In this document: positions 1-15,493 of the stretch, in pieces | How the letters are laid out: the number at the start of each line of letters is the position of its first letter | Position numbering within the stretch: the stretch's first letter is position 1 | DNA from: a virus | Lineage: Duplodnaviria > Heunggongvirae > Uroviricota > Caudoviricetes | Reading direction: 5' to 3' (one strand) | IMG/VR virus record: IMGVR_UViG_2606217117_000017 | Length of the DNA stretch: 15,493 nucleotides | Notes under the pieces: model-generated | Told to the model about the DNA's origin: nothing | The model's database searches: none | The model's input: the letters and a program-made list of their open reading frames with translations, nothing else | Program-made: the position numbers and the translations under genes

Positions 1-623
1 CGCTGTGTGTAGGCCAGCGATACATACTGAGAACCTTTATCACTGTGATGGACCGTGCCGGACGGTCGACGGGCCCATAACGCCTGCTCCAGTGCATCCA
101 GCACGAATGTCGTCTCCATGGACGATGAGACCCGCCACCCCACAATGTATCCGGCAAACACATCAATGATGAACGCCACATAGACGAAGCCCTGCCATGT
201 GCTGACGTAAGTAAAATCAGCCACCCACAGCTGGTCAGGTCGTTCTGCCACGAACTGACGGTTTACGCGGTCGCCTGCGGCAACGGCTTTCCGGCTGATG
301 GTCGTACGGACCTTTTTACCCCGGAGAACACCGGCAAGTCCCATAACCGCCATGAGACGTGCCACAGTGCATCTGGCCACTCTGATACCTTCCCGTAACA
401 ACTGACGCCAGACTTTACGCACACCGTATACCTTGTGATTTTCATCGTATACGCGCTGTATCTCTTTCTTCAGCCAGTCATCGCGCTGCGCACGGGCACT
501 GCGTTTATCCGGATGATGTCGCTGTTGCTGACAGTGGTAATACGTTGACGGGGCAATATGCAGTTCGCTGCATAGCGGTCCGACCCCGTACTGCTCACGC
601 AGCTTATCCAGCAGTGGCATCAT
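1..623 (-). CDS. IS629 OrfB (DDE transposase catalytic subunit), partial; C-terminus lies beyond the window start
   Basis: Own translation of the minus strand: starts ATGATG at 623-618 ([29 protein letters not shown]...) and reaches ...[20 protein letters not shown] at the window edge (IS3-family DDE-region signature HSDxGSQY). Same frame throughout. Confidence 0.8.
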
Positions 624-946
624 TTTTTCCAGAGGCGGTCGAACTCCGCCTTCGCAAAATAAGCGGAAGCCTGGCGAAGGATATCGTTACTGCGGCGCAG
701 TTCACGATTTTCACGCTCCAGCTCTTTCAGACGCTGACGTTCAGCGGTGGTGAGCCCTCCATCACCGCCCCCGGTATCCCGCTCATGCTGGCGAACCCAG
801 ACACGCAGAGTCTCCGGCGTACAGCCAATCTTTGGAGCAATGGAACAAATTGTCGCCCATTGTGAGTCATATTCGCCCTGACTTTCCAGAACCATACGGA
901 CTGCCCGTTGACGGACTTCAGGGGAAAAACGAGTATTTTTAGTCAT
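620..946 (-). CDS. IS629 OrfA (IS3-family transposase N-terminal HTH subunit), 108 aa
   Basis: ORF-track protein [26 protein letters not shown]...[34 protein letters not shown] matches IS629/IS3-family OrfA from memory; poly-A slippery region at its 3' end. Confidence 0.88.
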
Positions 947-1001
947 CCTGTTTACCTCTTTCTCAGGAAGTTTAGTCTCCAGGATTCCCGGGGCGGTTCA
1001 A

Positions 1002-1700
1002 ACTGTACGTCGACTGATACAGCGGATTAACGAGATAATGATTTACGCTGTAAACACTGGTCTGATTGATGCCAATCCAGCATCGGGGGTTGGGATGGCC
1101 TTTGAGAAGCCCAAAAAGCAAAACATGCCAACATTGCGGCCAGAAGAATTGCCGAAGCTGATGCGTTCTTTAGCTATGTCAAACCTATCTGTTTCGACTC
1201 GCTGTCTCATTGAATGGCAACTCCTGACACTTGTGCGTCCTTCTGAAGCCTCTGGTGCTCGTTGGGCAGAGCTCGATCTTGATACAAAGCTCTGGACTAT
1301 TCCGGCAGAGAGAATGAAAGCCAAACGAGAGCACATTGTTCCTTTATCACCCCAAGCTTTAGATATTTTGGAAGTGATGAAGCCCATCAGTGCTCATCGT
1401 GAACATATTTTTCCTAGCAGAAATGATCCTAAGCAATCAATGAATAGCCAAACTGCTAATGCAGCTTTAAAACGTATTGGTTTTGGAGGAAAGCTAGTTG
1501 CTCATGGCCTCCGATCTATTGCAAGTACAGCAATGAATGAAGCTGGGTTCAATGCGGATGTTATTGAAGCAGCTTTAGCTCACAGTGATAAAAATGAAGT
1601 TCGTAAAGCCTATAATCGTTCAACCTACCTGGTTCAAAGAAAAGATTTAATGAACTGGTGGGGATTATTTTGTATTAGTTCGAAGAGTGTGAATAAATGA
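1002..1700 (+). pseudogene. int: P4-family tyrosine integrase, C-terminal ~230 codons only; 5' portion separated by the IS629 insertion
   Basis: Open frame runs from the IS629 end (no stop from 1002) to 1700. Translation contains catalytic-domain motifs AHGLRSIASTA (HxxR) and AHSDKNEVRKAYNRSTY (catalytic Tyr region) and resembles CP4-57 IntA/P4 Int C-terminal halves (QRINEIMIYAxNTGLIDAxP...). No N-terminal arm-binding domain is present in the window. Confidence 0.8.
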
Positions 1701-3334
1701 ATACTTATAAGCAAACCATTAAACAAAAATCAAGATTAAACATATGGGAAACAGCTATCGCAAGGTTGACAACCCAAGCTGAGAGCTCAAGAATCTTAGA
1801 ATCAAACTATTTAACAAATCTTATAGATTTTTGTTGGAAAGATACACTAAATCAAGTTGCTATATATGATGAGAGCATTGTATTACGCAATGGTTATAAT
1901 TGGGTGCAAAAAATAAGTGATAGTTATAAACCTAAAGCTGCAAGTGAACTAAAGATTGCTTTCTTTTGCGGCCCTGAACCAGAAAATGACTTGGATATAC
2001 TCTTATCATTAGATGTTAGAATAGAAAATATCTGGGCTTTTGAAATTGATAACAATTCATATAACACTGCCTTACAAAAAGCTAAAGAGTTCTATCCAAA
2101 ATTAAAAATATTCCCTGGTTCTATTGGGGAGTTTTTTAAAACCACACATCATACCTTTGATATTATTTACCTTGATTTTACAAGTTCGTTATTGACTAAA
2201 AAGAGCCCTCCCCTTGGAGTAATAAACTCTGTATTTGACAATCAGGCCCTATCAGACTTAGGGGTGTTAATTGTAAACTCTTGCGAACCCGATGCTAACG
2301 AAGATAACGCAACATTTCTTGCAAGTTATTTCATGAATCACGAAATAATTGAATCATCTGTAATTAACAAAACTAATGATGATGATTATGATGATAACTA
2401 TGATTATTTTTCACTTTTTATTGAATCCCCCACATCACAAGGATACGATGATATAAAGTCATTAGCAAAAGTTATAAAGACTAACATATCCGGAGCGTAC
2501 TCTGCCTTTTCAACAAGTTATGTAATGCACTATGCTTCAATGATTAGTCCAACACTTCGTTTTCTACAAAATAACTCATTAAAAAGACAATTATTTAATG
2601 ATAAAAAAGCTGAAGTAACTGCAACCTTTGCAGAAATTGGATCAACTGACTTTTTCAAAACATTAATATCAACAGATGGTGAAGCATCGTCCCCCTCCAT
2701 TTTAGGAAACAGATTCCTAGATAATGAAAGCTACCCATTCTGGAATTTCATTGATTCATTAAATGGCTCAGGAACAAGTATTTCATCTTACTTTAAGAGC
2801 TTTTTCACCACCGCTAAAGAAGGTGTATCCATTTTAAATGCCGTGCAATTTCGGGAATCATTTCACTCAATGCTTACAGGAGCTAGAAAGCTATTATCTC
2901 AGCGAATGCTCAATGCAATACCCCAAATAATAAAAGCAATTCCTGATGCTAGAGGTGGTTTATTCTGTGACATTCCTTTACCCCACCTTTGGTTAGAGGT
3001 GGCACTTAATCAGTTAGGTGCACCATACCATGTAAACGTGAAAATGCATAATCGATGGAAATATAAAGCAAAAACTCGCACAATGCATACGGACTTATTT
3101 GTTTTTGATAGATGCAGAGGTTTTTATGACTCAATGCCTATGATAGATCAATACGAAACGATTCTTACTAACATCGAAGAACAAATTTTCGCTAGGTGTT
3201 GTATTGATATTATTGGTAAGCAATGTCGTTGGCCAACTCCAAAACTTTATTTTGGTTCGAACCTAATTGGAATAAACGAGTCTGATTGGTCTGAGTTCGC
3301 CGAACTTCGTGAAAGAGAAATTATAAAAGAATAA
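1697..3334 (+). CDS. Hypothetical 545-aa protein, AT-rich cargo gene in the P4 int-psu accessory hotspot; function unknown (candidate anti-phage defence protein). N-terminal third has a weak Rossmann/SAM-methyltransferase-like motif pattern.
   Basis: Long uninterrupted ORF with a start overlapping the int stop (ATGA at 1697-1700). Hand counts of 60-nt blocks give roughly 23-45% G+C versus ~70% in a block of alpha. Motif-like segments KIAFFCGPEP, DVRIENIWAFEID, FDIIYLDFTSS, GVLIVNS; acidic low-complexity stretch NDDDYDDNYDY. No Walker A, HNH or obvious PD-(D/E)xK motif seen. Confidence 0.75.
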   Translation: MNTYKQTIKQKSRLNIWETAIARLTTQAESSRILESNYLTNLIDFCWKDTLNQVAIYDESIVLRNGYNWVQKISDSYKPKAASELKIAFFCGPEPENDLDILLSLDVRIENIWAFEIDNNSYNTALQKAKEFYPKLKIFPGSIGEFFKTTHHTFDIIYLDFTSSLLTKKSPPLGVINSVFDNQALSDLGVLIVNSCEPDANEDNATFLASYFMNHEIIESSVINKTNDDDYDDNYDYFSLFIESPTSQGYDDIKSLAKVIKTNISGAYSAFSTSYVMHYASMISPTLRFLQNNSLKRQLFNDKKAEVTATFAEIGSTDFFKTLISTDGEASSPSILGNRFLDNESYPFWNFIDSLNGSGTSISSYFKSFFTTAKEGVSILNAVQFRESFHSMLTGARKLLSQRMLNAIPQIIKAIPDARGGLFCDIPLPHLWLEVALNQLGAPYHVNVKMHNRWKYKAKTRTMHTDLFVFDRCRGFYDSMPMIDQYETILTNIEEQIFARCCIDIIGKQCRWPTPKLYFGSNLIGINESDWSEFAELREREIIKE

Positions 3335-3348
3335 ATCTCCACGCGCGC

Positions 3349-3367
3349 AGTGCTTTCCCCGCCTCGC
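3349..3367. other. cos site: 19-nt P2/P4-type cohesive-end sequence
   Basis: 3349-3367 is gtgctttccccgcctcgcc, the reverse complement of GGCGAGGCGGGGAAAGCAC, which I recall as the P2/P4 cohesive end. It sits between the cargo gene and psu, as cos does in P4. Confidence 0.7.
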
Positions 3368-3468
3368 CCGCCCGCTTTGCGGGGCGGTTTTAATGCAGTT
3401 GCACTGACACGCTCAGACCGCGCCGGGAATGGCGCGGTTTGCAGAAAATGAGGCAGGGAAACGCATGC

Positions 3469-3502
3469 AAAGCCATGCACCTTATCGATGCATGGCTTTT
3501 TT
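3469..3502 (+). terminator. Rho-independent terminator (possibly weakly bidirectional) between cos and the psu 3' end
   Basis: Perfect inverted repeat aaagccatgca (3469-3479) / tgcatggcttt (3489-3499) with a 9-nt loop, followed by a T-run on the + strand (3497-3502). On the minus strand the hairpin is followed by a less T-rich tail. Confidence 0.6.
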
Positions 3503-3532: not shown

Positions 3533-4105
3533 TTACACTGACTGACGTGATGCAAGTTGCGCACTTTTACGCGAAAAAATCATGTTCTGCGCAGGGGTGA
3601 ATTTTTCACGGCTGTCATCCACCGAAGCCACGTCAGGCCTGAATCCGATGGTCGTTAAAATGTCGCTATCCTGTGCGGAATAATTAATTTTTTCACCCTT
3701 CGCAAGCCAGGACAGAAGGGCTTCACGCAGGGCATCTGTGGCACGCTGTATGGCACAGTTTCGGGCAATGGCCGTCAGCTCACTGTAGCCCATCAGCTCC
3801 GGTGCCAGTGCGGCCGCCAGTACTGTGCCGTGCTGCTGCATAAAATCATTCAGCCGGTCGCGGATGCTGATGTGCTGAACGGCTTCATGCGAACGAATAT
3901 AACGACCGGCGGCCTGATTCACCTGCCATTTTCTGACTTCGATAATATTGCGTAATTCGTCCAGGCGGCTGACGTTTCTGCCTTCTCCTGACAGAAGCCG
4001 CAGATATTCCTGTTCGGCCGCTGCCAGCTCATTTTTGCGTTGCAGCCATGCTGCTTTGTTATTCTGACAGGTGTCAAAGGCCTGCTGTAAGGCTGTGCTT
4101 TCCAT
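3533..4105 (-). CDS. psu: Psu (polarity suppression / capsid decoration protein), 190 aa
   Basis: 190-aa ORF, last gene of a three-gene leftward operon after sid and delta. Size and order match P4 Psu as recalled. Confidence 0.85.
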   Translation of the reverse strand: MESTALQQAFDTCQNNKAAWLQRKNELAAAEQEYLRLLSGEGRNVSRLDELRNIIEVRKWQVNQAAGRYIRSHEAVQHISIRDRLNDFMQQHGTVLAAALAPELMGYSELTAIARNCAIQRATDALREALLSWLAKGEKINYSAQDSDILTTIGFRPDVASVDDSREKFTPAQNMIFSRKSAQLASRQSV

Positions 4106-4178: not shown

Positions 4179-4679
4179 TCATTCCAGACGCAGCGAATAT
4201 GATTGTGTTTTTAACCGTACTGGCGGCAGTTCCTGTTTTTCATGCAGGCGTTCTGCCAGTTCGTCCGGCGTGACCGGGCGGACAATGAAGCGGGTGATGG
4301 TCTGAAGCGTTTTAAACACCAGACCACAGTCCGGATCCGTGCACACATAAAAACGCTCGGTGACTTCCTGAGACAGACGCCGCGATGTTCTTGACAGCGC
4401 AAGGCCTTTACATCTCCGACAACAATATCCGGTAACAAGCATTCTTTTCGGGCGTTTCATACTGCCGGAGGCTGACGTCAGTGAATCGCGGTATCTCTGT
4501 TTGCCTGAAATGTATTCCATTCCTGAATCTTTACTGTCAGAGAAAAAGCTTTCACTCGCTTCAAATGTCGCAGAGCAATAAATATTCCGGCACTGTGCAA
4601 TCATTATCTTGGTGCCATCGTCCATGAAATGTGCGCGACGGGTGTGAGCAACATGTCCACACGACGGGCAGTAAATCAT
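4179..4679 (-). CDS. delta: Delta (Ogr-family zinc-finger late transcription activator, tandem Ogr-like domains), 166 aa
   Basis: Two Cys-rich Ogr-like zinc-finger modules (MIYCPSCGH...CRNIYC... and ...YCCRRCKG...CTDPDC...). 166 aa as in P4 delta. Start ATG overlaps the sid stop (ATGA at 4676-4679). Confidence 0.85.
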   Translation of the reverse strand: MIYCPSCGHVAHTRRAHFMDDGTKIMIAQCRNIYCSATFEASESFFSDSKDSGMEYISGKQRYRDSLTSASGSMKRPKRMLVTGYCCRRCKGLALSRTSRRLSQEVTERFYVCTDPDCGLVFKTLQTITRFIVRPVTPDELAERLHEKQELPPVRLKTQSYSLRLE

Positions 4680-5410
4680 GACAGCAGTCCTCTGGCCTTA
4701 AGCTCTGCTCCCTGCTGGTCTATTTTGTCCTGCCACACCTTGCGCTGTGCCGGTGTGCCTGCCACCTCATAATCCATGTGCGGGAGTGTTGCCGCTGACA
4801 GTCCGGTCAGCCGGAGAACCGGCTCGCCGGTGAGGCTGATTTGCATCTGTTTAATTTTCTGTTCCAGCGATGATTTCACCTGCTGCATGACAGCTTTATC
4901 GGGTGCGACGTAGCCCTGATGGCCGGTGGTGTTGGCGAGCGGATTTTCCTGTACCAGGATACTCAGATGCATTGCCCGGACAAGCGCCTCACAGGTTTCA
5001 TTCAGGGCGTGTTCCAGCTCATGCTCTGCATACAGACTCAGAAGGTGATGATGTGCCTTCCGGTAGGCGGTGGCCGTGCTGTCACACGCCCCTTTCAGGC
5101 GTTCACGTTCGAAATTCAGCACCACGGCCAGATTGTCATATTCCTGTACCAGCTCCCGGCGTGCCACGCGCTCAATGTGGCGCTGTTTCAGCTCGTCGCT
5201 CAGGACACCACCGGCTGCACGAAAGGCCGTGCGCCAGTCGTCAGCGTCGTTTCCGTTGGCCTGCGTCAGCGCATTTTTTTCCTGCTCTGCCCGTTCAATG
5301 GCCGTGATGGTCTCATCCATCAGGCGGGCGTTCTCAAGATGAGCGGCTCTGGCCTTTTCCAGTTGTGCCAGTGCGGGTTGCAGATATTCAGGGATGGTGT
5401 TGTCAGACAT
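4676..5410 (-). CDS. sid: Sid (capsid size determination, external scaffold), 244 aa from ATG at 5410 (an upstream in-frame GTG at 5428 would give 250 aa)
   Basis: Coiled-coil-like, Ala/Glu/Leu-rich protein at the head of the sid-delta-psu operon. ATG at 5410 is preceded by GGAG about 10 nt upstream; 244 aa matches P4 Sid as recalled. Confidence 0.8.
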   Translation of the reverse strand: MSDNTIPEYLQPALAQLEKARAAHLENARLMDETITAIERAEQEKNALTQANGNDADDWRTAFRAAGGVLSDELKQRHIERVARRELVQEYDNLAVVLNFERERLKGACDSTATAYRKAHHHLLSLYAEHELEHALNETCEALVRAMHLSILVQENPLANTTGHQGYVAPDKAVMQQVKSSLEQKIKQMQISLTGEPVLRLTGLSAATLPHMDYEVAGTPAQRKVWQDKIDQQGAELKARGLLS

Positions 5411-5424
5411 TTTCCGGCTCCTCG

Positions 5425-5500
5425 TCACTTCAGGTTAAGAAAATTGTGACGTACACCGGACAACAACACGACGCATTGCAGATGTGCCAGCCCTGACACA
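5425..5500 (-). promoter_or_regulatory. Candidate Psid late promoter with Ogr/Delta-type activator dyad TGT-N12-ACA
   Basis: TGTgccagccctgacACA at 5483-5500 (palindromic half-sites 12 nt apart), centred about 55 nt upstream of a predicted minus-strand start near 5436; weak -10-like cacaat at 5437-5432. A second TGT-N12-ACA at 5435-5452 lies too close to the sid ATG to be the activator site. Confidence 0.4.
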
Positions 5501-5962: not shown

Positions 5963-6229
5963 ATGCAAGCTGTTTTTTCTTCCCCGTCTCCCGCCCCTGT
6001 GACGCCACTGATGCCGCTGCCGGACATCACGCAGGAACGTTTTTTACGTCTGCCGGAAGTAATGCACCTGTGCGGCCTGTCACGCTCGACCATCTATGAA
6101 CTCATCCGTAAGGGGGAATTTCCGCCGCAGGTGAGTCTTGGCGGTAAAAATGTGGCCTGGCTGCACTCTGAAGTCACCGCATGGATGGCCGGGCGCATTG
6201 CCGGACGCAAACGGGGGTACGACGCATGA
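5963..6229 (+). CDS. vis: Vis / AlpA-family excisionase-type DNA-binding regulator (88 aa; an internal ATG at 6011 would give 72 aa)
   Basis: MerR/AlpA-type HTH ([48 protein letters not shown]). GAGG SD 8 nt upstream of ATG 5963. Position and size equal P4 vis (orf88) as recalled. Confidence 0.75.
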
Positions 6230-6264
6230 TGATGCCCGCTCTGCAAAAACTCCCTTTTTCTGGC

Positions 6265-6294
6265 TTGCCTTTTTTCGGCATTTGCGGATATAGT
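6265..6294 (+). promoter_or_regulatory. Candidate sigma70 promoter (PLE-like) for the immunity/alpha operon
   Basis: TTGCCT (6265-6270), 18-nt spacer, TATAGT (6289-6294); followed by the seqA-like element. Confidence 0.35.
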
Positions 6295-6324
6295 TTTCCC
6301 GCTGCCGCAAAATCGGCAGCCGGG

Positions 6325-6620
6325 CGTGGAAACCCGAGCAATCTAACGGCGACATATGACGCGCCATGCGTCTTTTTTTGTGTCGCAATCAACGCCACAG
6401 AGCGCCAGATTATGGTGTGGTGTGTGGTCAGTCGAGCAGATGGCACTCCGTGCATCCTGCCCGCGTCCGCTCATTATGCCGCAGGGTCAATGGTAGCTCA
6501 GGCGGGGCAGCCTCCGGGCTGGCCGGTATCCGTTAGAGCCGGTATTTCCACCCCCGTCTGGGCTATCGCCATCGAGCGTGGAAACTCCGGCGATAGCGTA
6601 ACCTGCTATCTAACGGAGGC
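6325..6620 (+). ncRNA. cI: P4-type RNA immunity leader: putative seqA (~6335-6353), CI-RNA/seqB (~6520-6545) and seqC (~6598-6618)
   Basis: Two direct copies of cgtggaaac...atctaacgg (6325-6349 and 6578-6614) flank a segment containing the complementary tccgttaga (6529-6537). This is the arrangement expected for a CI RNA that pairs with upstream and downstream target sites. Boundaries are approximate. Confidence 0.45.
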
Positions 6621-6627
6621 TGCCATC

Positions 6628-6825
6628 ATGGCTACAACCCTTACCCCTTCACACCCTGAATTTGTCTTTGTGTTTGCGGCTGTCCGTCGCGCAGACCGTC
6701 ATCCCCGTATCTGCATGCTTCGCACCGTCGCCGGTGATGAACGCAGTGCCCGCCGTTCCCTTGTCCGTGACTATGTGCTCTCCCTTGCTGCCCGTCTGCC
6801 GGTGGTGGAGGTGTCCCGTGCGTAA
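6628..6825 (+). CDS. Hypothetical small protein (~65 aa) immediately downstream of the seqC-like site
   Basis: ATG at 6628 preceded by GGAGG (6614-6618). It is the 3' part of a longer ORF-track frame whose upstream portion overlaps vis and the regulatory leader and is unlikely to be coding. Confidence 0.4.
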
Positions 6826-8023: not shown

Positions 8024-10357
8024 ATGAAAATGAACGTAACCGCCACCGTCAGCCATGCGCTCGGCCACTGGCCGCGTATTCTCCCGGCGCTGGGGATTCA
8101 GGTGCTGAAAAACCGTCATCAGCCCTGTCCGGTCTGTGGCGGGAGTGACCGCTTCCGTTTTGATGACAGGGAGGGGCGCGGCACCTGGTACTGCAATCAG
8201 TGTGGTGCCGGTGACGGCCTGAAACTGGTTGAAAAGGTGTTTGGTGTCTCCCCGTCCGACGCGGCCGCAAAGGTGGCTGCCGTGACCGGCAGCCTGCCCC
8301 CGGCTGACCCGGCAGTGACGGCTGCCGCCGGTGCTGAAACAGACGCTGCCCGGAAGAACGCCGCCGCACTGGCACAAACCCTGATGGCGAAAACCCGTCC
8401 CGGAACCGGTAACGCCTACCTGACCCGCAAGGGCTTTCCCGGCCGGGAATGCCGGATGCTGACCGGCACACACAGAGCCGGTGGCGTGAGCTGGCGTGCC
8501 GGTGACCTTGTGGTGCCACTGTATGACGACAGCGGCGAACTGGTTAACCTTCAGTTAATCAGTGCTGACGGCCGTAAGCGCACCCTGAAAGGCGGACAGG
8601 TCAGGGGCACCTGTCACACCCTTGAAGGACAGAATCAGGCCGGAAAACGTCTGTGGATAGCGGAGGGATACGCGACCGCACTTACCGTGCATCACCTGAC
8701 CGGTGAAACGGTGATGGTGGCGCTTTCTTCCGTGAACCTCCTTTCTCTGGCCAGCCTTGCCCGGCAGAAGCATCCGGCCTGTCAGATTGTCCTTGCCGCA
8801 GACCGTGACCTCAGCGGTGACGGCCAGAAAAAAGCCGCCGCAGCCGCAGATGCGTGTGAAGGTGTTGTTGCCCTGCCGCCGGTCTTCGGTGACTGGAATG
8901 ATGCCTTCACGCAGTACGGCGGGGAGGCCACCCGTAAGGCCATTTACGATGCCATCCGGCCACCGGCTGAAAGCCCGTTCGACACCATGAGTGAAGCGGA
9001 GTTTTCCGCCATGAGTACCAGCGAAAAGGCCATGCGTATCTATGAGCATTACGGCGAGGCGCTCGCGGTCGATGCCAACGGCCAGCTTCTGTCCCGCTAT
9101 GAAAATGGTGTCTGGAAGGTGCTGCCGCCACAGGACTTTGCCCGGAATGTGGCCGGGCTGTTTCAGCGGCTGCGCGCGCCGTTCTCCTCCGGGAAGGTGG
9201 CCTCCGTGGTGGACACCCTGAAGCTGATTATTCCGCAGCAGGAAGCCCCCTCCCGCTGCCTGATTGGCTTTCGTAACGGCGTGCTCGACACGCAGAACGG
9301 CACGTTCCACCCGCACAGTCCGTCACACTGGATGCGTACCCTGTGCGATGTGGATTTCACCCCGCCGGTGGAAGGGGAAACGCTGGAAACCCACGCCCAC
9401 GCGTTCTGGCGCTGGCTTGACCGTGCCGCCGGTGGCCGTGCGGAAAAACGCGACGTGATTCTGGCCGCACTGTTTATGGTGCTGGCAAACCGCTATGACT
9501 GGCAGCTCTTTCTGGAGGTGACCGGTCCCGGCGGCAGCGGCAAAAGTATCATGGCCGAAATAGCCACCCTGCTGGCCGGGGAGGATAACGCCACGTCGGC
9601 CACCATTGAGACGCTGGAATCCCCGCGTGAACGTGCCGCGTTAACTGGCTTCTCACTGATACGCCTGCCGGACCAGGAAAAATGGAGCGGCGACGGAGCC
9701 GGACTCAAGGCCATCACCGGCGGCGATGCAGTGTCCGTTGACCCGAAATACCGGGATGCGTACTCCACGCATATCCCGGCGGTGATTCTGGCCGTGAACA
9801 ATAACCCGATGCGCTTCACCGACCGCAGCGGCGGCGTGTCACGCCGGCGGGGGATTATTCACTTCCCGGAACAGATAGCCCCGCAGGAGCGCGACCCGCA
9901 GCTTAAGGACAAAATCACCCGCGAGCTGGCGGTCATCGTGCGTCACCTGATGCAGAAGTTCAGCGACCCGATGCTCGCCCGGTCACTGCTTCAGTCCCAG
10001 CAGAACTCAGACGAGGCACTGAACATCAAACGGGATGCCGACCCGACGTTTGATTTTATCGGCTATCTGGAAACCCTGCCGCAGACCAGCGGCATGTATA
10101 TGGGGAACGCCAGTATCATCCCGCGTAATTACCGTAAATACCTCTATCACGCCTATCTGGCCTACATGGAGGCAAACGGCTACCGGAATGTACTCAGTCT
10201 GAAAATGTTCGGGCTGGGGCTGCCGGTGATGCTGAAGGAATACGGACTGAATTACGAGAAGCGCCATACCAAACAGGGGATACAGACCAACCTGACACTG
10301 AAAGAGGAAAGCTACGGCGACTGGCTGCCAAAATGTGACGCCCCTGCAACAACCTGA
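8024..10357 (+). CDS. alpha: Alpha: P4-type primase-helicase with origin-binding domain, 777 aa
   Basis: N-terminal zinc-binding primase motif CPVCGGSDRFRFDDREGRGTWYCNQCG; Toprim-like EGY (WIAEGYATA) and DRD (LAADRDLSGDG); Walker A GPGGSGKS; AGGAG SD at 8011-8015. Length equals P4 alpha as recalled. Confidence 0.92.
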   Translation: MKMNVTATVSHALGHWPRILPALGIQVLKNRHQPCPVCGGSDRFRFDDREGRGTWYCNQCGAGDGLKLVEKVFGVSPSDAAAKVAAVTGSLPPADPAVTAAAGAETDAARKNAAALAQTLMAKTRPGTGNAYLTRKGFPGRECRMLTGTHRAGGVSWRAGDLVVPLYDDSGELVNLQLISADGRKRTLKGGQVRGTCHTLEGQNQAGKRLWIAEGYATALTVHHLTGETVMVALSSVNLLSLASLARQKHPACQIVLAADRDLSGDGQKKAAAAADACEGVVALPPVFGDWNDAFTQYGGEATRKAIYDAIRPPAESPFDTMSEAEFSAMSTSEKAMRIYEHYGEALAVDANGQLLSRYENGVWKVLPPQDFARNVAGLFQRLRAPFSSGKVASVVDTLKLIIPQQEAPSRCLIGFRNGVLDTQNGTFHPHSPSHWMRTLCDVDFTPPVEGETLETHAHAFWRWLDRAAGGRAEKRDVILAALFMVLANRYDWQLFLEVTGPGGSGKSIMAEIATLLAGEDNATSATIETLESPRERAALTGFSLIRLPDQEKWSGDGAGLKAITGGDAVSVDPKYRDAYSTHIPAVILAVNNNPMRFTDRSGGVSRRRGIIHFPEQIAPQERDPQLKDKITRELAVIVRHLMQKFSDPMLARSLLQSQQNSDEALNIKRDADPTFDFIGYLETLPQTSGMYMGNASIIPRNYRKYLYHAYLAYMEANGYRNVLSLKMFGLGLPVMLKEYGLNYEKRHTKQGIQTNLTLKEESYGDWLPKCDAPATT

Positions 10358-11016: not shown

Positions 11017-14000
11017 TCAGAACGACCAGTTCACACCAGCTACCGCGTTCCACGGGGATTCCACACCGGCACTATGGCTATACCCCACCCCAAGATGCCC
11101 GCTTAACGTACTGCTGAATGAGGCTTTAATACCTGCCTGGTATATTCCACGTCTGCCCGACAAATAATTGACGAAATTACCGTCACTATTCACTTTCACC
11201 CGGTTATCATCGACAAATTCTTTGCGCACAGCCGCCTTCAGCCACGGCTCAACTTCCATACCGTTCCCCAGACGCATGTTGTAACTCAGCGTTGCGCCCA
11301 GTTCACGATATATACTGCGGGTATCGACTGATTTCGATTTCATGCCATTGGATAAATGATATTCGGGGTTATCAGCGGTGAACCCCGTTAACGATGCATA
11401 CGGCGTCAGGTTCCAGTTACCATCGGTAAATCGCATCCCGGTTTCAATGTGACCGCCCAGCCCGTTGCTGTGGTAACTGCCATTGGCGGCTCCACCGCTG
11501 CTCATTTTACCTGCTACGTTACTTTTAAAACGGTTCAGCTTCACGACACCGTCCAGATAGAAACCACTTTCATGTTCCCAACTGGCATAGCCGCCCAGAG
11601 AATAACTGCCCACACTGCCATGTCCTCCGCGATCAAAACCGATATGTGAATGGGAATAGCCCATAAAAGCGCCTAGCGTGGTAATTCCTTCAGGAATATC
11701 ATTACGGCTGTCGATCCCCACTGTCATTCCGGTCAGCGTCTGCTCAAACCCGGCACCCGCATCGGTGGTGACATTATTACGGGTGTTATACGTCGCCCCC
11801 CAGACATTATTGTTGTGTGGACTCGCTTTCATTATGTTCAACCGCTCGCGAATACTGTTTAGCTCAGCATCAAATACCAACGGTAATGTTGCTGCCATAT
11901 TGAGTACGGCTGCCGTAGAAGGCGTAATGCGTTTCTCCGGAACGGGTGTCGGCGTTGGATCGGGAGTAGGGTCTGGTTTTGGATTTGGGTCTGGCTTTGG
12001 ATCGGGTTTTGGGTCTGGCTTTGGATTTGGGATGGGGTCCGGGTTGGGTTTGACATCATTGGTCAGGTTCCAGTTGCTGTTGCCGTCACTTTTCAGGACA
12101 TACTCATAGGTCCCAAGATCAACGAAACCGCCGGTATTGCCCAGCGTAAACGAAGCATCCCCTCCCCCTGTTTTCACCAGCGTCATCGCGTCGTCAGACT
12201 GTGGGCTGACGCCGGTATCCTGAACAAAGATTTTAAAATTACCAGTGGCGTTGTTGTTGACGACCAGTTGATCGCCCCGGGAGCCTGCAACGTTGGTATG
12301 CAGGTAGAAATTACCGCTACCGGAAAGTTCATTGGTTGTCAGCGTATTGTAGATACCGTTAGTTGTGGCAGGCGCTGCTGTTTGTGCTGACAAATAAACA
12401 TCACCGTCGTTGAGTAGCAAACTGTTTACTCTATATTCGCAGTTGCTGGTACCTGCACAGGAATTATTGCTGTTAAGCCAGACACTGCCCCGGCTGGCAG
12501 CCGTCAGGTCGGCAAGCGTGGTATCGACGCCATTTCCCAGAGTCAATGTCGCGCTATCGGTAATCCGGACCGCCCCTTCGAGTTTAACTGGCGTAACATT
12601 ATCCCGTGGCGTCATTAACGACAGGCTTCCTGTCGCGCCACTGACCGATGCATCCGCCAGCGTACCTGCGTAGACGATTGCCGTACCGCCAGCGACCTGG
12701 AGATCTTCTGCCCGGGCCAGAGCCTGAAACTCATCTTTTGACCGCCCAAGGGTATATTGCCCGCCAGAGTTAACCTTTGTGGCGGAGTCCTGACCCAGGT
12801 TTTGCATTGCCCCACCCTTGCCAACCGTGGAGTCGCGAGCTTCGGTACCTGCTAATACCAATAAATTACCGCCATTTTCCAGCAACATATTGGTCGCTAA
12901 ATTGCCGGAAATGGAAAAAGTACCGTACTGGTGAGTACCGCTGATTTCAATACCGTTAGCCGTGCTCGTCTGGAGAGCGGCACCGCTGTTCTGGACGATA
13001 TCTGTCGCTTTGCCATTATCGTTGACTGTCAGCGTACCGCCTTCATTGATCTTTGTTTTTATTGCCTCTCCGTTAGCTGAAACTGTTTGTATTCCGCCGT
13101 CGTTAATTGTTGTCTCATTCGCCACACCCTCGACAATTTGTTCACCGCCGGTGAGCGTCGTGCCTGTCGCAGTGGCTTTTGTTTTGACGATCTCCCGTCC
13201 GCCCATATTGACCTGTGTTTTGTCAGAAGAGGTGTCTGACTCCACGGTTAACACGCCGCCATTTGCCAGCAGGATATTGTTCGCCGCACCCTGCTCGATG
13301 CTGAACGCGACGCCATCCGCGCGTGTTCCTGTGACCCGCGTCGCCCTGGTGGTTGCAACCAAAGCGCCCTGGCTACTCTGCTGTATCCCCGTTGCGCTGC
13401 CTTTCTCCCGCACATCGAGTGTGCCGCCGTCATTAAGCACCGAGTTTTCAGCCAGACCGCCCTCATTAACTACCTGTGAACCCCCATTAATAATGGAACC
13501 TTCCGCTGTCCCGTTTGCCATAATTTGTTGTAGGCCAGAGACGATATCGGTATTGATTGCCTTACCATAATTCTGAACGGTTTGCGTGCCACCATTGATG
13601 TGTGTTTTCTCTGTTGACCCACCATCAACAATTTGTTCACCACTTTCGATATTTGCTTCAGTGGCTAAACCATATACCGTTTGCTTGCCACCTTTGATAT
13701 TTGCTTTATCAGAAGTGGCACTGGCATATATTGTTTGGGTGCCAGCACTATTGAGTACAGTGCCAACATCTTTTCCATAAACATCCATTTTGCCGTTGGC
13801 ATTAATAATCGTGTCAACTGCGCGGGAACCAGTGACGACTGTTAATGAGCCAGCGTTTTCCAGCACTACATTTTTAGCTTCTGAATTCCTGATGTAGAAA
13901 GCATCACCATAACTGTTGGTTCCTTCGATAAGTGTTCCGGAGGTCGTGGAAGCAATTAATGCGCCGCCGGATTGTTGCTCAACATGCTTAGCCTCACCAC

Positions 14001-14164
14001 CGTCCTGAACCTCCAGAACGCCGCCATTATTAAGTCTGGTGCTATCTGTTTTAGCCTCCTTCTGGACAATCAGCTTACCGCCAGTATCAATGGTAGTATT
14101 TTTCGCCGAGGTTTTAGCCACTACCGTCAGTTCGCCGGTATTTTCCAGCACAACATAATTAGCC
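11017..14164 (-). pseudogene. AIDA-I/Ag43-type (type Va) autotransporter adhesin, 5'-truncated by IS10 (no signal peptide or N-terminal passenger start in window)
   Basis: C-terminal beta-barrel ending ...AVAGVNWSF; repetitive Gly/Thr/Asn-rich passenger with ~19-aa repeats (GGxQxV...); Pro-rich linker PNPDPIPNPKPDPKPDPKPDP. The ORF-track start codon at 14218-14220 and first 18 codons lie inside the IS10 terminus, so the native 5' end is missing. Confidence 0.8.
11948..12053. repeat. In-frame tandem repeat (24-bp period, GGNTYTGG-type units) encoding the Pro-Asp/Lys linker of the autotransporter
   Basis: gggtctggctttggat occurs at 11988-12003 and 12012-12027, with related hexamer units throughout 11948-12053. 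Confidence 0.7.
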
Positions 14165-15493
14165 CTGATGAATCCCCTAATGATTTTGGTAAAAATCATT
14201 AAGTTAAGGTGGATACACATCTTGTCATATGATCAAATGGTTTCGCGAAAAATCAATAATCAGACAACAAGATGTGCGAACTCGATATTTTACACGACTC
14301 TCTTTACCAATTCTGCCCCGAATTACACTTAAAACGACTCAACAGCTTAACGTTGGCTTGCCACGCCTTACTTGACTGTAAAACTCTCACTCTTACCGAA
14401 CTTGGCCGTAACCTGCCAACCAAAGCGAGAACAAAACATAACATCAAACGAATCGACCGATTGTTAGGTAATCGTCACCTCCACAAAGAGCGACTCGCTG
14501 TATACCGTTGGCATGCTAGCTTTATCTGTTCGGGCAATACGATGCCCATTGTACTTGTTGACTGGTCTGATATTCGTGAGCAAAAACGACTTATGGTATT
14601 GCGAGCTTCAGTCGCACTACACGGTCGTTCTGTTACTCTTTATGAGAAAGCGTTCCCGCTTTCAGAGCAATGTTCAAAGAAAGCTCATGACCAATTTCTA
14701 GCCGACCTTGCGAGCATTCTACCGAGTAACACCACACCGCTCATTGTCAGTGATGCTGGCTTTAAAGTGCCATGGTATAAATCCGTTGAGAAGCTGGGTT
14801 GGTACTGGTTAAGTCGAGTAAGAGGAAAAGTACAATATGCAGACCTAGGAGCGGAAAACTGGAAACCTATCAGCAACTTACATGATATGTCATCTAGTCA
14901 CTCAAAGACTTTAGGCTATAAGAGGCTGACTAAAAGCAATCCAATCTCATGCCAAATTCTATTGTATAAATCTCGCTCTAAAGGCCGAAAAAATCAGCGC
15001 TCGACACGGACTCATTGTCACCACCCGTCACCTAAAATCTACTCAGCGTCGGCAAAGGAGCCATGGGTTCTAGCAACTAACTTACCTGTTGAAATTCGAA
15101 CACCCAAACAACTTGTTAATATCTATTCGAAGCGAATGCAGATTGAAGAAACCTTCCGAGACTTGAAAAGTCCTGCCTACGGACTAGGCCTACGCCATAG
15201 CCGAACGAGCAGCTCAGAGCGTTTTGATATCATGCTGCTAATCGCCCTGATGCTTCAACTAACATGTTGGCTTGCGGGCGTTCATGCTCAGAAACAAGGT
15301 TGGGACAAGCACTTCCAGGCTAACACAGTCAGAAATCGAAACGTACTCTCAACAGTTCGCTTAGGCATGGAAGTTTTGCGGCATTCTGGCTACACAATAA
15401 CAAGGGAAGACTCACTCGTGGCTGCAACCCTGCTTACTCAAAATTTATTCACACATGGTTACGCTTTGGGGAAATTATGAGGGGATCTCTCAG
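14165..15493 (+). mobile_element. IS10 (IS4 family), complete 1329-bp copy; outside end at 14165, inside end at the last base of the window
   Basis: Begins CTGATGAATCCCCTAATGATTTTGGTAAAAATCATTAAGTTAAGGTGGATACACATCTTGTCATATGATC (IS10 outside end, from memory) and ends ...TTATGAGGGGATCTCTCAG (inside end); length 1329 bp. Confidence 0.9.
14272..15480 (+). CDS. IS10 transposase, 402 aa
   Basis: ORF-track protein MCELDILHDSLYQFCPELHLKRLNSLTLACHALLDCKTLTLTELGRNL... matches the IS10/Tn10 transposase from memory; starts 108 nt inside the element. Confidence 0.92.
   Translation: MCELDILHDSLYQFCPELHLKRLNSLTLACHALLDCKTLTLTELGRNLPTKARTKHNIKRIDRLLGNRHLHKERLAVYRWHASFICSGNTMPIVLVDWSDIREQKRLMVLRASVALHGRSVTLYEKAFPLSEQCSKKAHDQFLADLASILPSNTTPLIVSDAGFKVPWYKSVEKLGWYWLSRVRGKVQYADLGAENWKPISNLHDMSSSHSKTLGYKRLTKSNPISCQILLYKSRSKGRKNQRSTRTHCHHPSPKIYSASAKEPWVLATNLPVEIRTPKQLVNIYSKRMQIEETFRDLKSPAYGLGLRHSRTSSSERFDIMLLIALMLQLTCWLAGVHAQKQGWDKHFQANTVRNRNVLSTVRLGMEVLRHSGYTITREDSLVAATLLTQNLFTHGYALGKL

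Follow-up and report, generated by a model that had tools for sequence, protein, structure and literature searches.

What does a lone, AT-rich gene that fills the cargo slot of a phage satellite do for the element that carries it? The gene considered here encodes a protein of 545 amino acids and lies in IMG/VR virus record IMGVR_UViG_2606217117_000017, a stretch of 15,493 nucleotides (hereafter the window) whose content is a P4-like phage satellite at the ssrA locus of Escherichia coli. The interpretation that we prefer, and to which we would give an even chance, is that the product is a stand-alone accessory protein of mobile elements, namely a single-gene anti-phage or anti-invader defence in which a core with the fold of S-adenosylmethionine (SAM)-dependent methyltransferases is the effector. 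The parts of this interpretation deserve different degrees of trust. By analogy, the gene fairly probably confers phage resistance; an action by SAM-dependent modification of nucleic acid, which the structure model suggests, is possible but doubtful. To call the protein an abortive infection factor, as the first-pass annotation of the sequence also did, is to go by inference.

The position of the gene is the first element of an answer. The open reading frame (ORF) and the features that delimit its slot are the following:

1038-1700, plus strand: 3' fragment of a P4-type tyrosine integrase gene (int), its last 220 codons, with a stop codon that overlaps the start of the studied ORF (ATGA)
1697-3334, plus strand: the studied ORF of 545 amino acids (stop included in the coordinates), a candidate single-protein defence gene from a family without a name
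3350-3368, minus strand: cos, an exact copy of the P2/P4 cohesive-end sequence of 19 nt, which closes the cargo slot on the right
3533-4105, minus strand: psu (polarity suppression / capsid decoration), satellite backbone flanking the hotspot

The ORF occupies the whole interval between int and cos, its stop codon being 16 nt from cos, and psu adjoins. The guanine plus cytosine (GC) content of the ORF is 0.339, compared to 0.50-0.58 on both sides. In closely related E. coli satellites the same slot contains a SIR2-family protein or other hypothetical proteins, so that the gene lies between int and cos/psu at a place that varies among otherwise similar satellites, as expected for P4 hotspot cargo. 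The first-pass annotation had placed the ORF in the P4 int-cos-psu hotspot and called its composition strongly foreign, and both statements hold, given these coordinates, the exact cos, the SIR2 or other cargo found elsewhere and a GC content of 34%. It had also considered that the ORF could be a fragment. The ORF is in fact intact, with no frameshift or stop inside, and positions 1000-3500 of the window are 100% identical to copies that stand behind intact integrases. Since its ATG overlaps the integrase stop codon, the ORF is probably co-transcribed and co-translated with int in the lysogen. It is present in 5 of 5,426 complete E. coli genomes. The P4 psu-int interval is a published defence hotspot (PMC9122126), and another unknown gene in it is expected rather than surprising, because unknown cargo is common in P4 hotspots and six of eight P4 loci of unknown function were protective when tested (PMC13586616). 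A separate observation concerns the E. coli E47 satellite, which carries SIR2 in the hotspot: a gene annotated as "anti-phage dCTP deaminase" lies directly outside its integrase end (L081 1-569), and a defence gene thus abuts the attachment side of that satellite.

The family to which the protein belongs is larger than its anonymity would suggest. The exact sequence was found on 430 contigs and is a "hypothetical protein" in every source. A word-indexed search retrieved 180 full-length relatives, and an exhaustive profile search 516 clusters at 50% identity, nearly all of 500-560 amino acids and matching end to end. Their hosts include Enterobacterales, Vibrio, Aeromonas, Pasteurellaceae, Burkholderiales, Bacteroidota, Cyanobacteria, Firmicutes, Acidobacteria, Myxococcota and Methanosarcina, and the family is found in 57 of 185,579 species representatives. 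In each of the ten hosts that were examined, AT content is higher in the gene than around it (in Melittangium, GC 53% against 69%). This is a rare, patchy and horizontally moved gene. The ratio of non-synonymous to synonymous substitution rates (dN/dS), 0.06-0.10 between the E. coli, Klebsiella and Photorhabdus satellite copies, indicates strong purifying selection, which also speaks against a fragment. Searched against Pfam, NCBIfam, PHROGs and PADLOC v2, the window protein matched nothing (no PADLOC family or system model), which agrees with the earlier remark that it resembles no named defence family; in the first three libraries no confident match to a housekeeping or a phage structural or regulatory protein was found either. 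Among 44 aligned relatives, Pfam returned sub-threshold Spermine_synth and Methyltransf matches only, and PADLOC a match to the Mad2 core in two and nothing else. A tblastn search of plasmids gave three distant matches in uninformative contexts. Some members are extended. In P0179 (777 amino acids), residues 11-185 make up a poly-gamma-glutamate hydrolase-type peptidase domain (PF05908, E 3.4e-40) fused N-terminally to the module, and P0110, P0133, P0144, P0148 and P0157 have 100-180 additional C-terminal residues without family match.

A structure was modelled with AlphaFold2 from the alignment of these 44 sequences, on which conservation was also judged. The whole protein forms one compact body in the model, with a predicted local distance difference test score (pLDDT) of 90.7 and a predicted template-modelling score (pTM) of 0.92. 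Its parts are:

residues 1-75 (1697-1921, plus strand): family-specific N-terminal bundle of long helices, conserved at basic and aromatic positions (Y4, K9, S12, R13, W17, L24, T25 and W69)
residues 85-220, plus a strand at 241-243 (1949-2356, plus strand): predicted seven-stranded class-I SAM-methyltransferase Rossmann-like core, with beta1 to beta6 in 85-220
residues 91-98, C-G-P-E-P-E-N-D (1967-1990, plus strand): invariant loop after beta1, in place of the GxGxG motif I; the family signature
residue E116 (2042-2044, plus strand): invariant acidic residue at the end of beta2, which aligns with the Glu of TrmR/YrrM at the SAM-ribose-binding position
residues 154-162, FDIIYLDFT (2156-2182, plus strand): beta4 with invariant D155 and D160, at the position of motif IV; aligns with YDVIFIDAA of TrmR/YrrM
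residues 226-240 (2372-2416, plus strand): acidic loop rich in Asp and Tyr, variable, rich in insertions and deletions and of low model confidence
residues 246-545 (2432-3331, plus strand): family-specific helical and alpha/beta region with a second conserved block

Two of the usual marks of a class-I methyltransferase are present, the seven-stranded Rossmann-like alpha/beta core of the model and the acidic residues at the ends of beta2 and beta4 (E116 and D160, invariant in the 44 sequences). Of the glycine-rich motif I (E/D-x-G-x-G-x-G), only G92 is kept. When the profile of the core was compared to solved structures, the sole sequence match was TrmR/YrrM, a tRNA O-methyltransferase (E 0.0099), and this alignment puts the invariant E116, G141 and D160 on SAM-binding or motif IV residues. 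The nearest structures are those of tRNA and mRNA guanine methyltransferases (Trm1, TYW2 and cap methyltransferases), many other neighbours are natural-product methyltransferases, and the BFVD library of viral structures returned generic methyltransferases only. The methyltransferase-like pattern that had been noticed in the N-terminal third of the sequence is thus borne out by the model, the fold neighbours and the TrmR/YrrM profile match.

The C-terminal half is helical in the model from residue 250 to 420, and residues 429-510 form a helix, a beta-hairpin and further helices. Its conserved block consists of F423, C424, D425, G441, H445, R453, Y456, K459, D471, R474, Y477, Q496 and R500; the Arg, Lys, Tyr and His residues that abound in it typically bind phosphates or nucleotides. 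No structural relative of this half was found by fold search, and a profile search of residues 246-545 against the Protein Data Bank (PDB) gave a chance match (E 1.8). An autonomous C-terminal domain was considered and rejected: modelled alone, residues 246-545 collapse to a pLDDT of 58.8, which argues that they are part of one integrated fold. The earlier description of two parts joined by an acidic linker must accordingly be given up. It had also pointed to several Cys and His residues in this region, and H445 and C424 do lie in the conserved block, but the cysteines are not universal. An essential Cys3-His zinc site was likewise rejected as a candidate, as C473 is replaced by Ala in P0179 and in the divergent member P0245 (see below) and the F-C-D triplet is absent from P0245; the loss of C-terminal cysteines in distant members goes against an essential Cys/His metal site.

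If these parts work as the model suggests, the methyltransferase-fold core would be the effector and would use SAM or a related adenosyl cofactor in order to modify covalently an anionic, nucleotide-containing target. The most plausible target would be RNA or single-stranded nucleic acid, given that Arg, Lys, Tyr and His abound in the second conserved block and that guanine methyltransferases of tRNA and mRNA come closest in structure. The N-terminal helices and the C-terminal half would either recognize this target or keep the enzyme inactive until infection, and the outcome would be a block of gene expression or replication of the phage (or of the infected cell).

The genomic contexts of the relatives help to evaluate this proposal. 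They were surveyed at 67 loci, with 608 neighbouring ORFs, 148 of which are nearest neighbours. No conserved partner gene was found, as no neighbour family is present at more than 5 of the 67 loci, the families that recur among them are P4 backbone genes or host genes at ssrA, and each Pfam family seen among the 148 nearest neighbours appears there at most twice. The family moves unaccompanied between cargo slots of very different kinds, and the absence of a partner gene that the first-pass annotation had noted in the window therefore extends to all 67 loci. In P4-like elements, the same int-cargo-cos/psu slot holds orthologues in satellites of three other genera (Klebsiella aerogenes, Rahnella and Photorhabdus). 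A second slot is found in P2-like prophages of E. coli, where a 41%-identical paralogue stands between G (tail-fibre assembly) and FI (sheath) (L012 7871-9529; also L013 and L014), with flanks 96% identical to phage P2; other P2-like phages have different cargo there. This Z/fun slot of P2 has been named as a defence locus (PMC13586616). According to the same source, defence genes hardly ever pass between P2 and P4 (PMC13586616), and the presence of distant paralogues, rather than of the same gene, in P2 and P4 elements is consistent with such rare exchange. Members of the same 90%-identity cluster as the P2-slot paralogue are also recorded from Serratia, Yersinia and Citrobacter.

The other contexts are still more varied. 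In Vibrio parahaemolyticus, a homologue forms a single-gene cassette of a chromosomal integron between attC-type repeats (L002 7811-9760), which shows that the gene functions, or is at any rate selected, by itself. Several positions away in the same array are cassettes for Tse2-like ADP-ribosyltransferase, PLD-type and T5orf172 proteins. In Aeromonas, the gene lies in the cargo region of a lambdoid prophage, with an HNH_2 gene directly upstream and a KAP NTPase two genes downstream; in Salmonella it is found inside an element with an integrase and a relaxase, and in Methanosarcina near an nSTAND NTPase and a DEAD helicase. Elsewhere, the nearest neighbours include RdrB, ThsA, AbiEi, AriA, PD-Lambda-5_A, restriction enzymes and the PADLOC candidates PDC-S02 and PDC-S06. 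On a Caulobacter plasmid (L019 6980-14863), a distant homologue (27% identity, 618 amino acids, annotated as a class I SAM-dependent methyltransferase) is followed by four co-directed genes, two for small hypothetical proteins, one for an 815-amino-acid nucleoside triphosphate pyrophosphohydrolase and one for a 713-amino-acid GNAT protein; this locus may be a multi-gene variant of the system.

The most suggestive context is a gene fusion. In the divergent member P0245, the module is fused behind a retron-type reverse transcriptase (L022 2012-5386; L023 176-3550), which matches the PADLOC models RT-Protease_XI, RT-TIR_XII and RT-Toprim_I-C, all single-gene retron types, with E 1e-130 to 1e-111. 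The gene as called probably starts too early, and its likely true start is Met234 of the called product. Three bases before this likely start ends a 15-nt inverted repeat of L022 (2556-2570 and 2694-2708, with 123 nt between the arms), at the position expected for the a1/a2 repeats of a retron RNA (msr-msd). In relatives of this reverse transcriptase the same C-terminal position is taken by CHAT proteases, TIR domains, trypsin-like proteases, kinases, metallophosphatases, deaminases or AAA ATPases, so that the module sits where these relatives carry their effector domains and occupies the effector slot. The fusion is a pointer, not a proof, for an effector role, and the P0245 locus may represent a retron type not yet described, whose effector has the methyltransferase fold. 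The window protein differs in having neither a reverse transcriptase nor a non-coding RNA; among the loci considered, P0245 is the only one with this arrangement. An Rfam scan upstream of the fusion found nothing beyond a sub-threshold match to Acido-Lenti-1 on the strand opposite to the reverse transcriptase (L022 2379-2434, minus strand; 27.3 bits for a gathering score of 37, E 0.0037). A retron paper rich in mentions of "methyltransferase" was set aside, as it concerns a phage methylase as a trigger and is unrelated. Taken together, the P2-slot paralogue, the integron cassette, the prophage cargo locus, the reverse transcriptase fusion and the defence-gene neighbours strengthen the interpretation as a defence gene.

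Within that interpretation, a more specific scenario can be formulated, which seems to us rather unlikely. Methylation would be a weapon and not a label of self: upon infection, the enzyme would use SAM to methylate a nucleobase, on the face that serves for base pairing, in RNA or single-stranded DNA of the phage or the host, the N2 of guanine, as in the nearest structural neighbour Trm1, being one candidate for the target atom. The modification would stall translation or replication and would be the methyl-transfer counterpart of DarT-type ADP-ribosylation. In that case, the G-P-E-P-x-N-D loop and the unmatched C-terminal half would define a new architecture of regulated nucleic-acid methyltransferase, which satellites, P2-like prophages, integrons and a retron-type reverse transcriptase would each have recruited on their own.

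The same contexts admit another explanation, namely that the protein serves counter-defence or some other conflict function, by which it would disarm the immunity of the host or of a competitor, or manipulate the helper phage, whether it modifies an immune component or a signalling nucleotide or uses up SAM. The fast-swapping cargo slots of satellites, prophages and integrons could also house anti-defence genes, which diversify rapidly as well (PMC13586616), and an enzyme fold with an unusual cofactor loop would suit such a role. Nevertheless, tests of the P4 int-cos and P2 Z/fun slots have until now revealed defence systems (PMC9122126, PMC13586616), members of the family are also present as isolated chromosomal insertions and in an archaeon, beside defence-type NTPases, and the retron-type fusion groups the module with immune effectors. 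Counter-defence is thus unlikely.

Comparison to known enzymes and systems bears on a third explanation, in which the protein would be an orphan DNA methyltransferase that serves the mobile element by methylating satellite, helper or host DNA, so as to survive restriction in a new host. Among known systems, the family was compared to Mad2 of MADS and to Type I-like N6-adenine DNA methyltransferases. Four of its members match the PADLOC Mad2 model, partially and in the core only (two of them among the 44 aligned sequences). Mad2 is likewise associated with defence, but it works within an eight-gene, methylation-based system of self/non-self recognition (10.1101/2023.03.30.534895), whereas the present family has no partner and no NPPY-type motif. 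The protein does not have the features of an exocyclic-amine (N6-A/N4-C) DNA methyltransferase, namely a motif IV of the form (D/N/S)PP(Y/F/W) and a DNA target-recognition domain, as its motif IV reads L-D-F-T and no N6_Mtase Pfam match was obtained. With the (D/N)PP(Y/F) motif missing and no matches to DNA-methylase families, the orphan methylase is quite unlikely. Nor was a nuclease domain (PD-(D/E)xK, HNH or others) found in the protein, such as single-polypeptide restriction-modification enzymes of Type IIG/IIL would have.

The enzymes closest in structure are not much closer in kind. With Trm1, the tRNA m2,2G26 N2-guanine methyltransferase (PDB 3axt and 2dul), the core alone aligns, at 10-14% identity; no member of the family matches Pfam TRM (PF02005) even at E<=1, and the C-terminal domain of Trm1 has no counterpart. 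Motif I is G-P-E-P-x-N-D in the family, which is rare and borne by mobile elements rather than housekeeping. With TrmR/YrrM, a cation-dependent O-methyltransferase of the COMT type (PDB 5zw3), beta2 to beta4 are in register (ENVWAIE/EIYTIE, the Gly of the beta3 loop, FDIIYLD/YDVIFID), but the match is borderline and covers 56 residues, and the studied family is 2.5 times larger and without Pfam Methyltransf_3 match. The nearly invariant N194 after beta5 lies where COMT-type enzymes hold a metal ligand. Among the single-gene cargo of the P4 int-cos and P2 hotspots (such as SIR2 proteins, DUF4238, Toga and Reve), the slot, the stand-alone character, the AT-rich foreign composition and the rapid swapping are shared, but there is no relation to the studied protein in sequence or fold, and the predicted methyltransferase-fold chemistry is not among theirs. 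Judged by description, none of Crouga, Bandua, Aernus, Toga, Reve and Hailong (PMC13586616) fits the protein, which may be among the untested or negative loci in the supplements of that paper; the DefensePredictor paper lists no matching domain. The protein thus falls outside Trm1, the COMT-type enzymes, the N6-adenine DNA methyltransferases and every PADLOC family, each of which has a defining feature that was looked for in it and not found, and the likeness to them is that of a shared core.

These likenesses also bear on the possibility of a non-immune cargo, that is, a methyltransferase of small molecules, proteins, rRNA or tRNA that would give a metabolic or resistance benefit (for example by ribosome methylation). 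The family occurs as an integron cassette and on plasmids, which are common carriers of resistance genes, its sole borderline-significant sequence match is a COMT-type tRNA O-methyltransferase, natural-product methyltransferases are frequent among its structural neighbours, and metabolic genes adjoin it at several loci. Yet the NCBIfam library, which includes NCBI's resistance-gene models, gave no match, the 545 amino acids with a large conserved extra half are unlike known resistance methylases, no biosynthetic cluster context was seen, and so rare and patchy a distribution, whether among species representatives or complete E. coli genomes, also argues against it. As P2 and P4 are moreover reported without resistance or virulence cargo (PMC13586616), we regard this explanation as very unlikely.

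Very improbable as well, and restricted to the window, is a silent remnant, in which the gene would be intact but deprived of the integrase promoter by an insertion sequence (IS) in a decaying satellite: an IS629/IS1203 end at ~1000 does truncate int, on the transcription of which the ORF would depend by its overlapping start, and promoter-like sites are no commoner than in shuffled sequence, but the ORF is undamaged and identical to the copies behind intact integrases, and transcription often runs outward from IS ends. In defective P4 elements, besides, defence genes are reported to stay intact (PMC13586616).

Several observations weigh against the single-gene defence that we prefer. The insertion separates the window copy from its upstream integrase and promoter. 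No match was obtained by tblastn in 50,697 sequenced phage genomes, and a literature search found no paper on the protein or its phenotype (accession WP_021572920 was absent). At many loci the neighbours are ordinary metabolic genes, and the reverse transcriptase fusion belongs to one lineage only, present on two independent metagenome contigs. The substrate class, for its part, is drawn from structural neighbours at 10-14% identity. As motif I lacks GxGxG and carries acidic residues, SAM binding is not assured; weak Spermine_synth matches in 5 of the 44 members hint at a pocket of the decarboxylated-SAM type, and the cofactor could be another adenosyl compound or the domain a non-catalytic binding module.

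The remainder of the window is made up of satellite backbone, insertion sequences and flanking host sequence:

620-1000, minus strand: left end of an IS3-family element (IS629/IS1203 type; orfA 620-946), with its terminus at ~1000, inside the integrase
3368-3387, plus strand: terminator-like hairpin rich in GC, with a T run behind it, immediately after cos
4179-4679: delta
4676-5428: sid
6181-6825: Ash-family gene
8024-10357: alpha primase-helicase
11017-14220: autotransporter YpjA/EhaD of 1067 amino acids, adhesin-like, with AIDA, Pertactin and Autotransporter domains, beyond the satellite
to the right of YpjA/EhaD (region 11017-15480): IS4-family DDE transposase of 402 amino acids, beyond the satellite

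The IS629/IS1203-type insertion removes the first ~181 codons of the integrase, which is intact (401 amino acids) and adjoins ssrA in NZ_CP098203, a complete genome with the same element that was inspected in detail; among the complete genomes listed with the cargo gene, alignments end at the IS junction. Because its integrase is cut, this copy of the satellite is probably unable to excise. Matches to complete genomes end at 14164 on the other side, which makes the IS4-type element particular to the source strain. The hairpin at 3368-3387, a perfect one of 6 bp rich in GC and followed by the T run, begins at the last base of the cos 19-mer and could end transcription that leaves the cargo gene or else belong to the cos recognition region.

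What distinguishes this candidate is a broad and conserved family, recruited separately into four kinds of cargo slot and by a retron-type reverse transcriptase, together with its predicted chemistry and the ease with which it can be tested, as the gene is small, partner-free and from E. coli. Described single-gene defences mostly deplete NAD or nucleotides, cut nucleic acids or damage membranes, and to our knowledge a methyltransferase-fold effector that acts alone is not among them. If the gene proves protective, it would add a defence family of about 500 sequence clusters that escapes current defence finders and whose range extends from Enterobacteria to Bacteroidota, Cyanobacteria and Methanosarcina. 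It would also mean that one cargo gene moves between the P4 int-cos slot, the P2 Z/fun slot, integron cassettes and a retron-type reverse transcriptase, which would bear on the way in which defence modules are shuffled.

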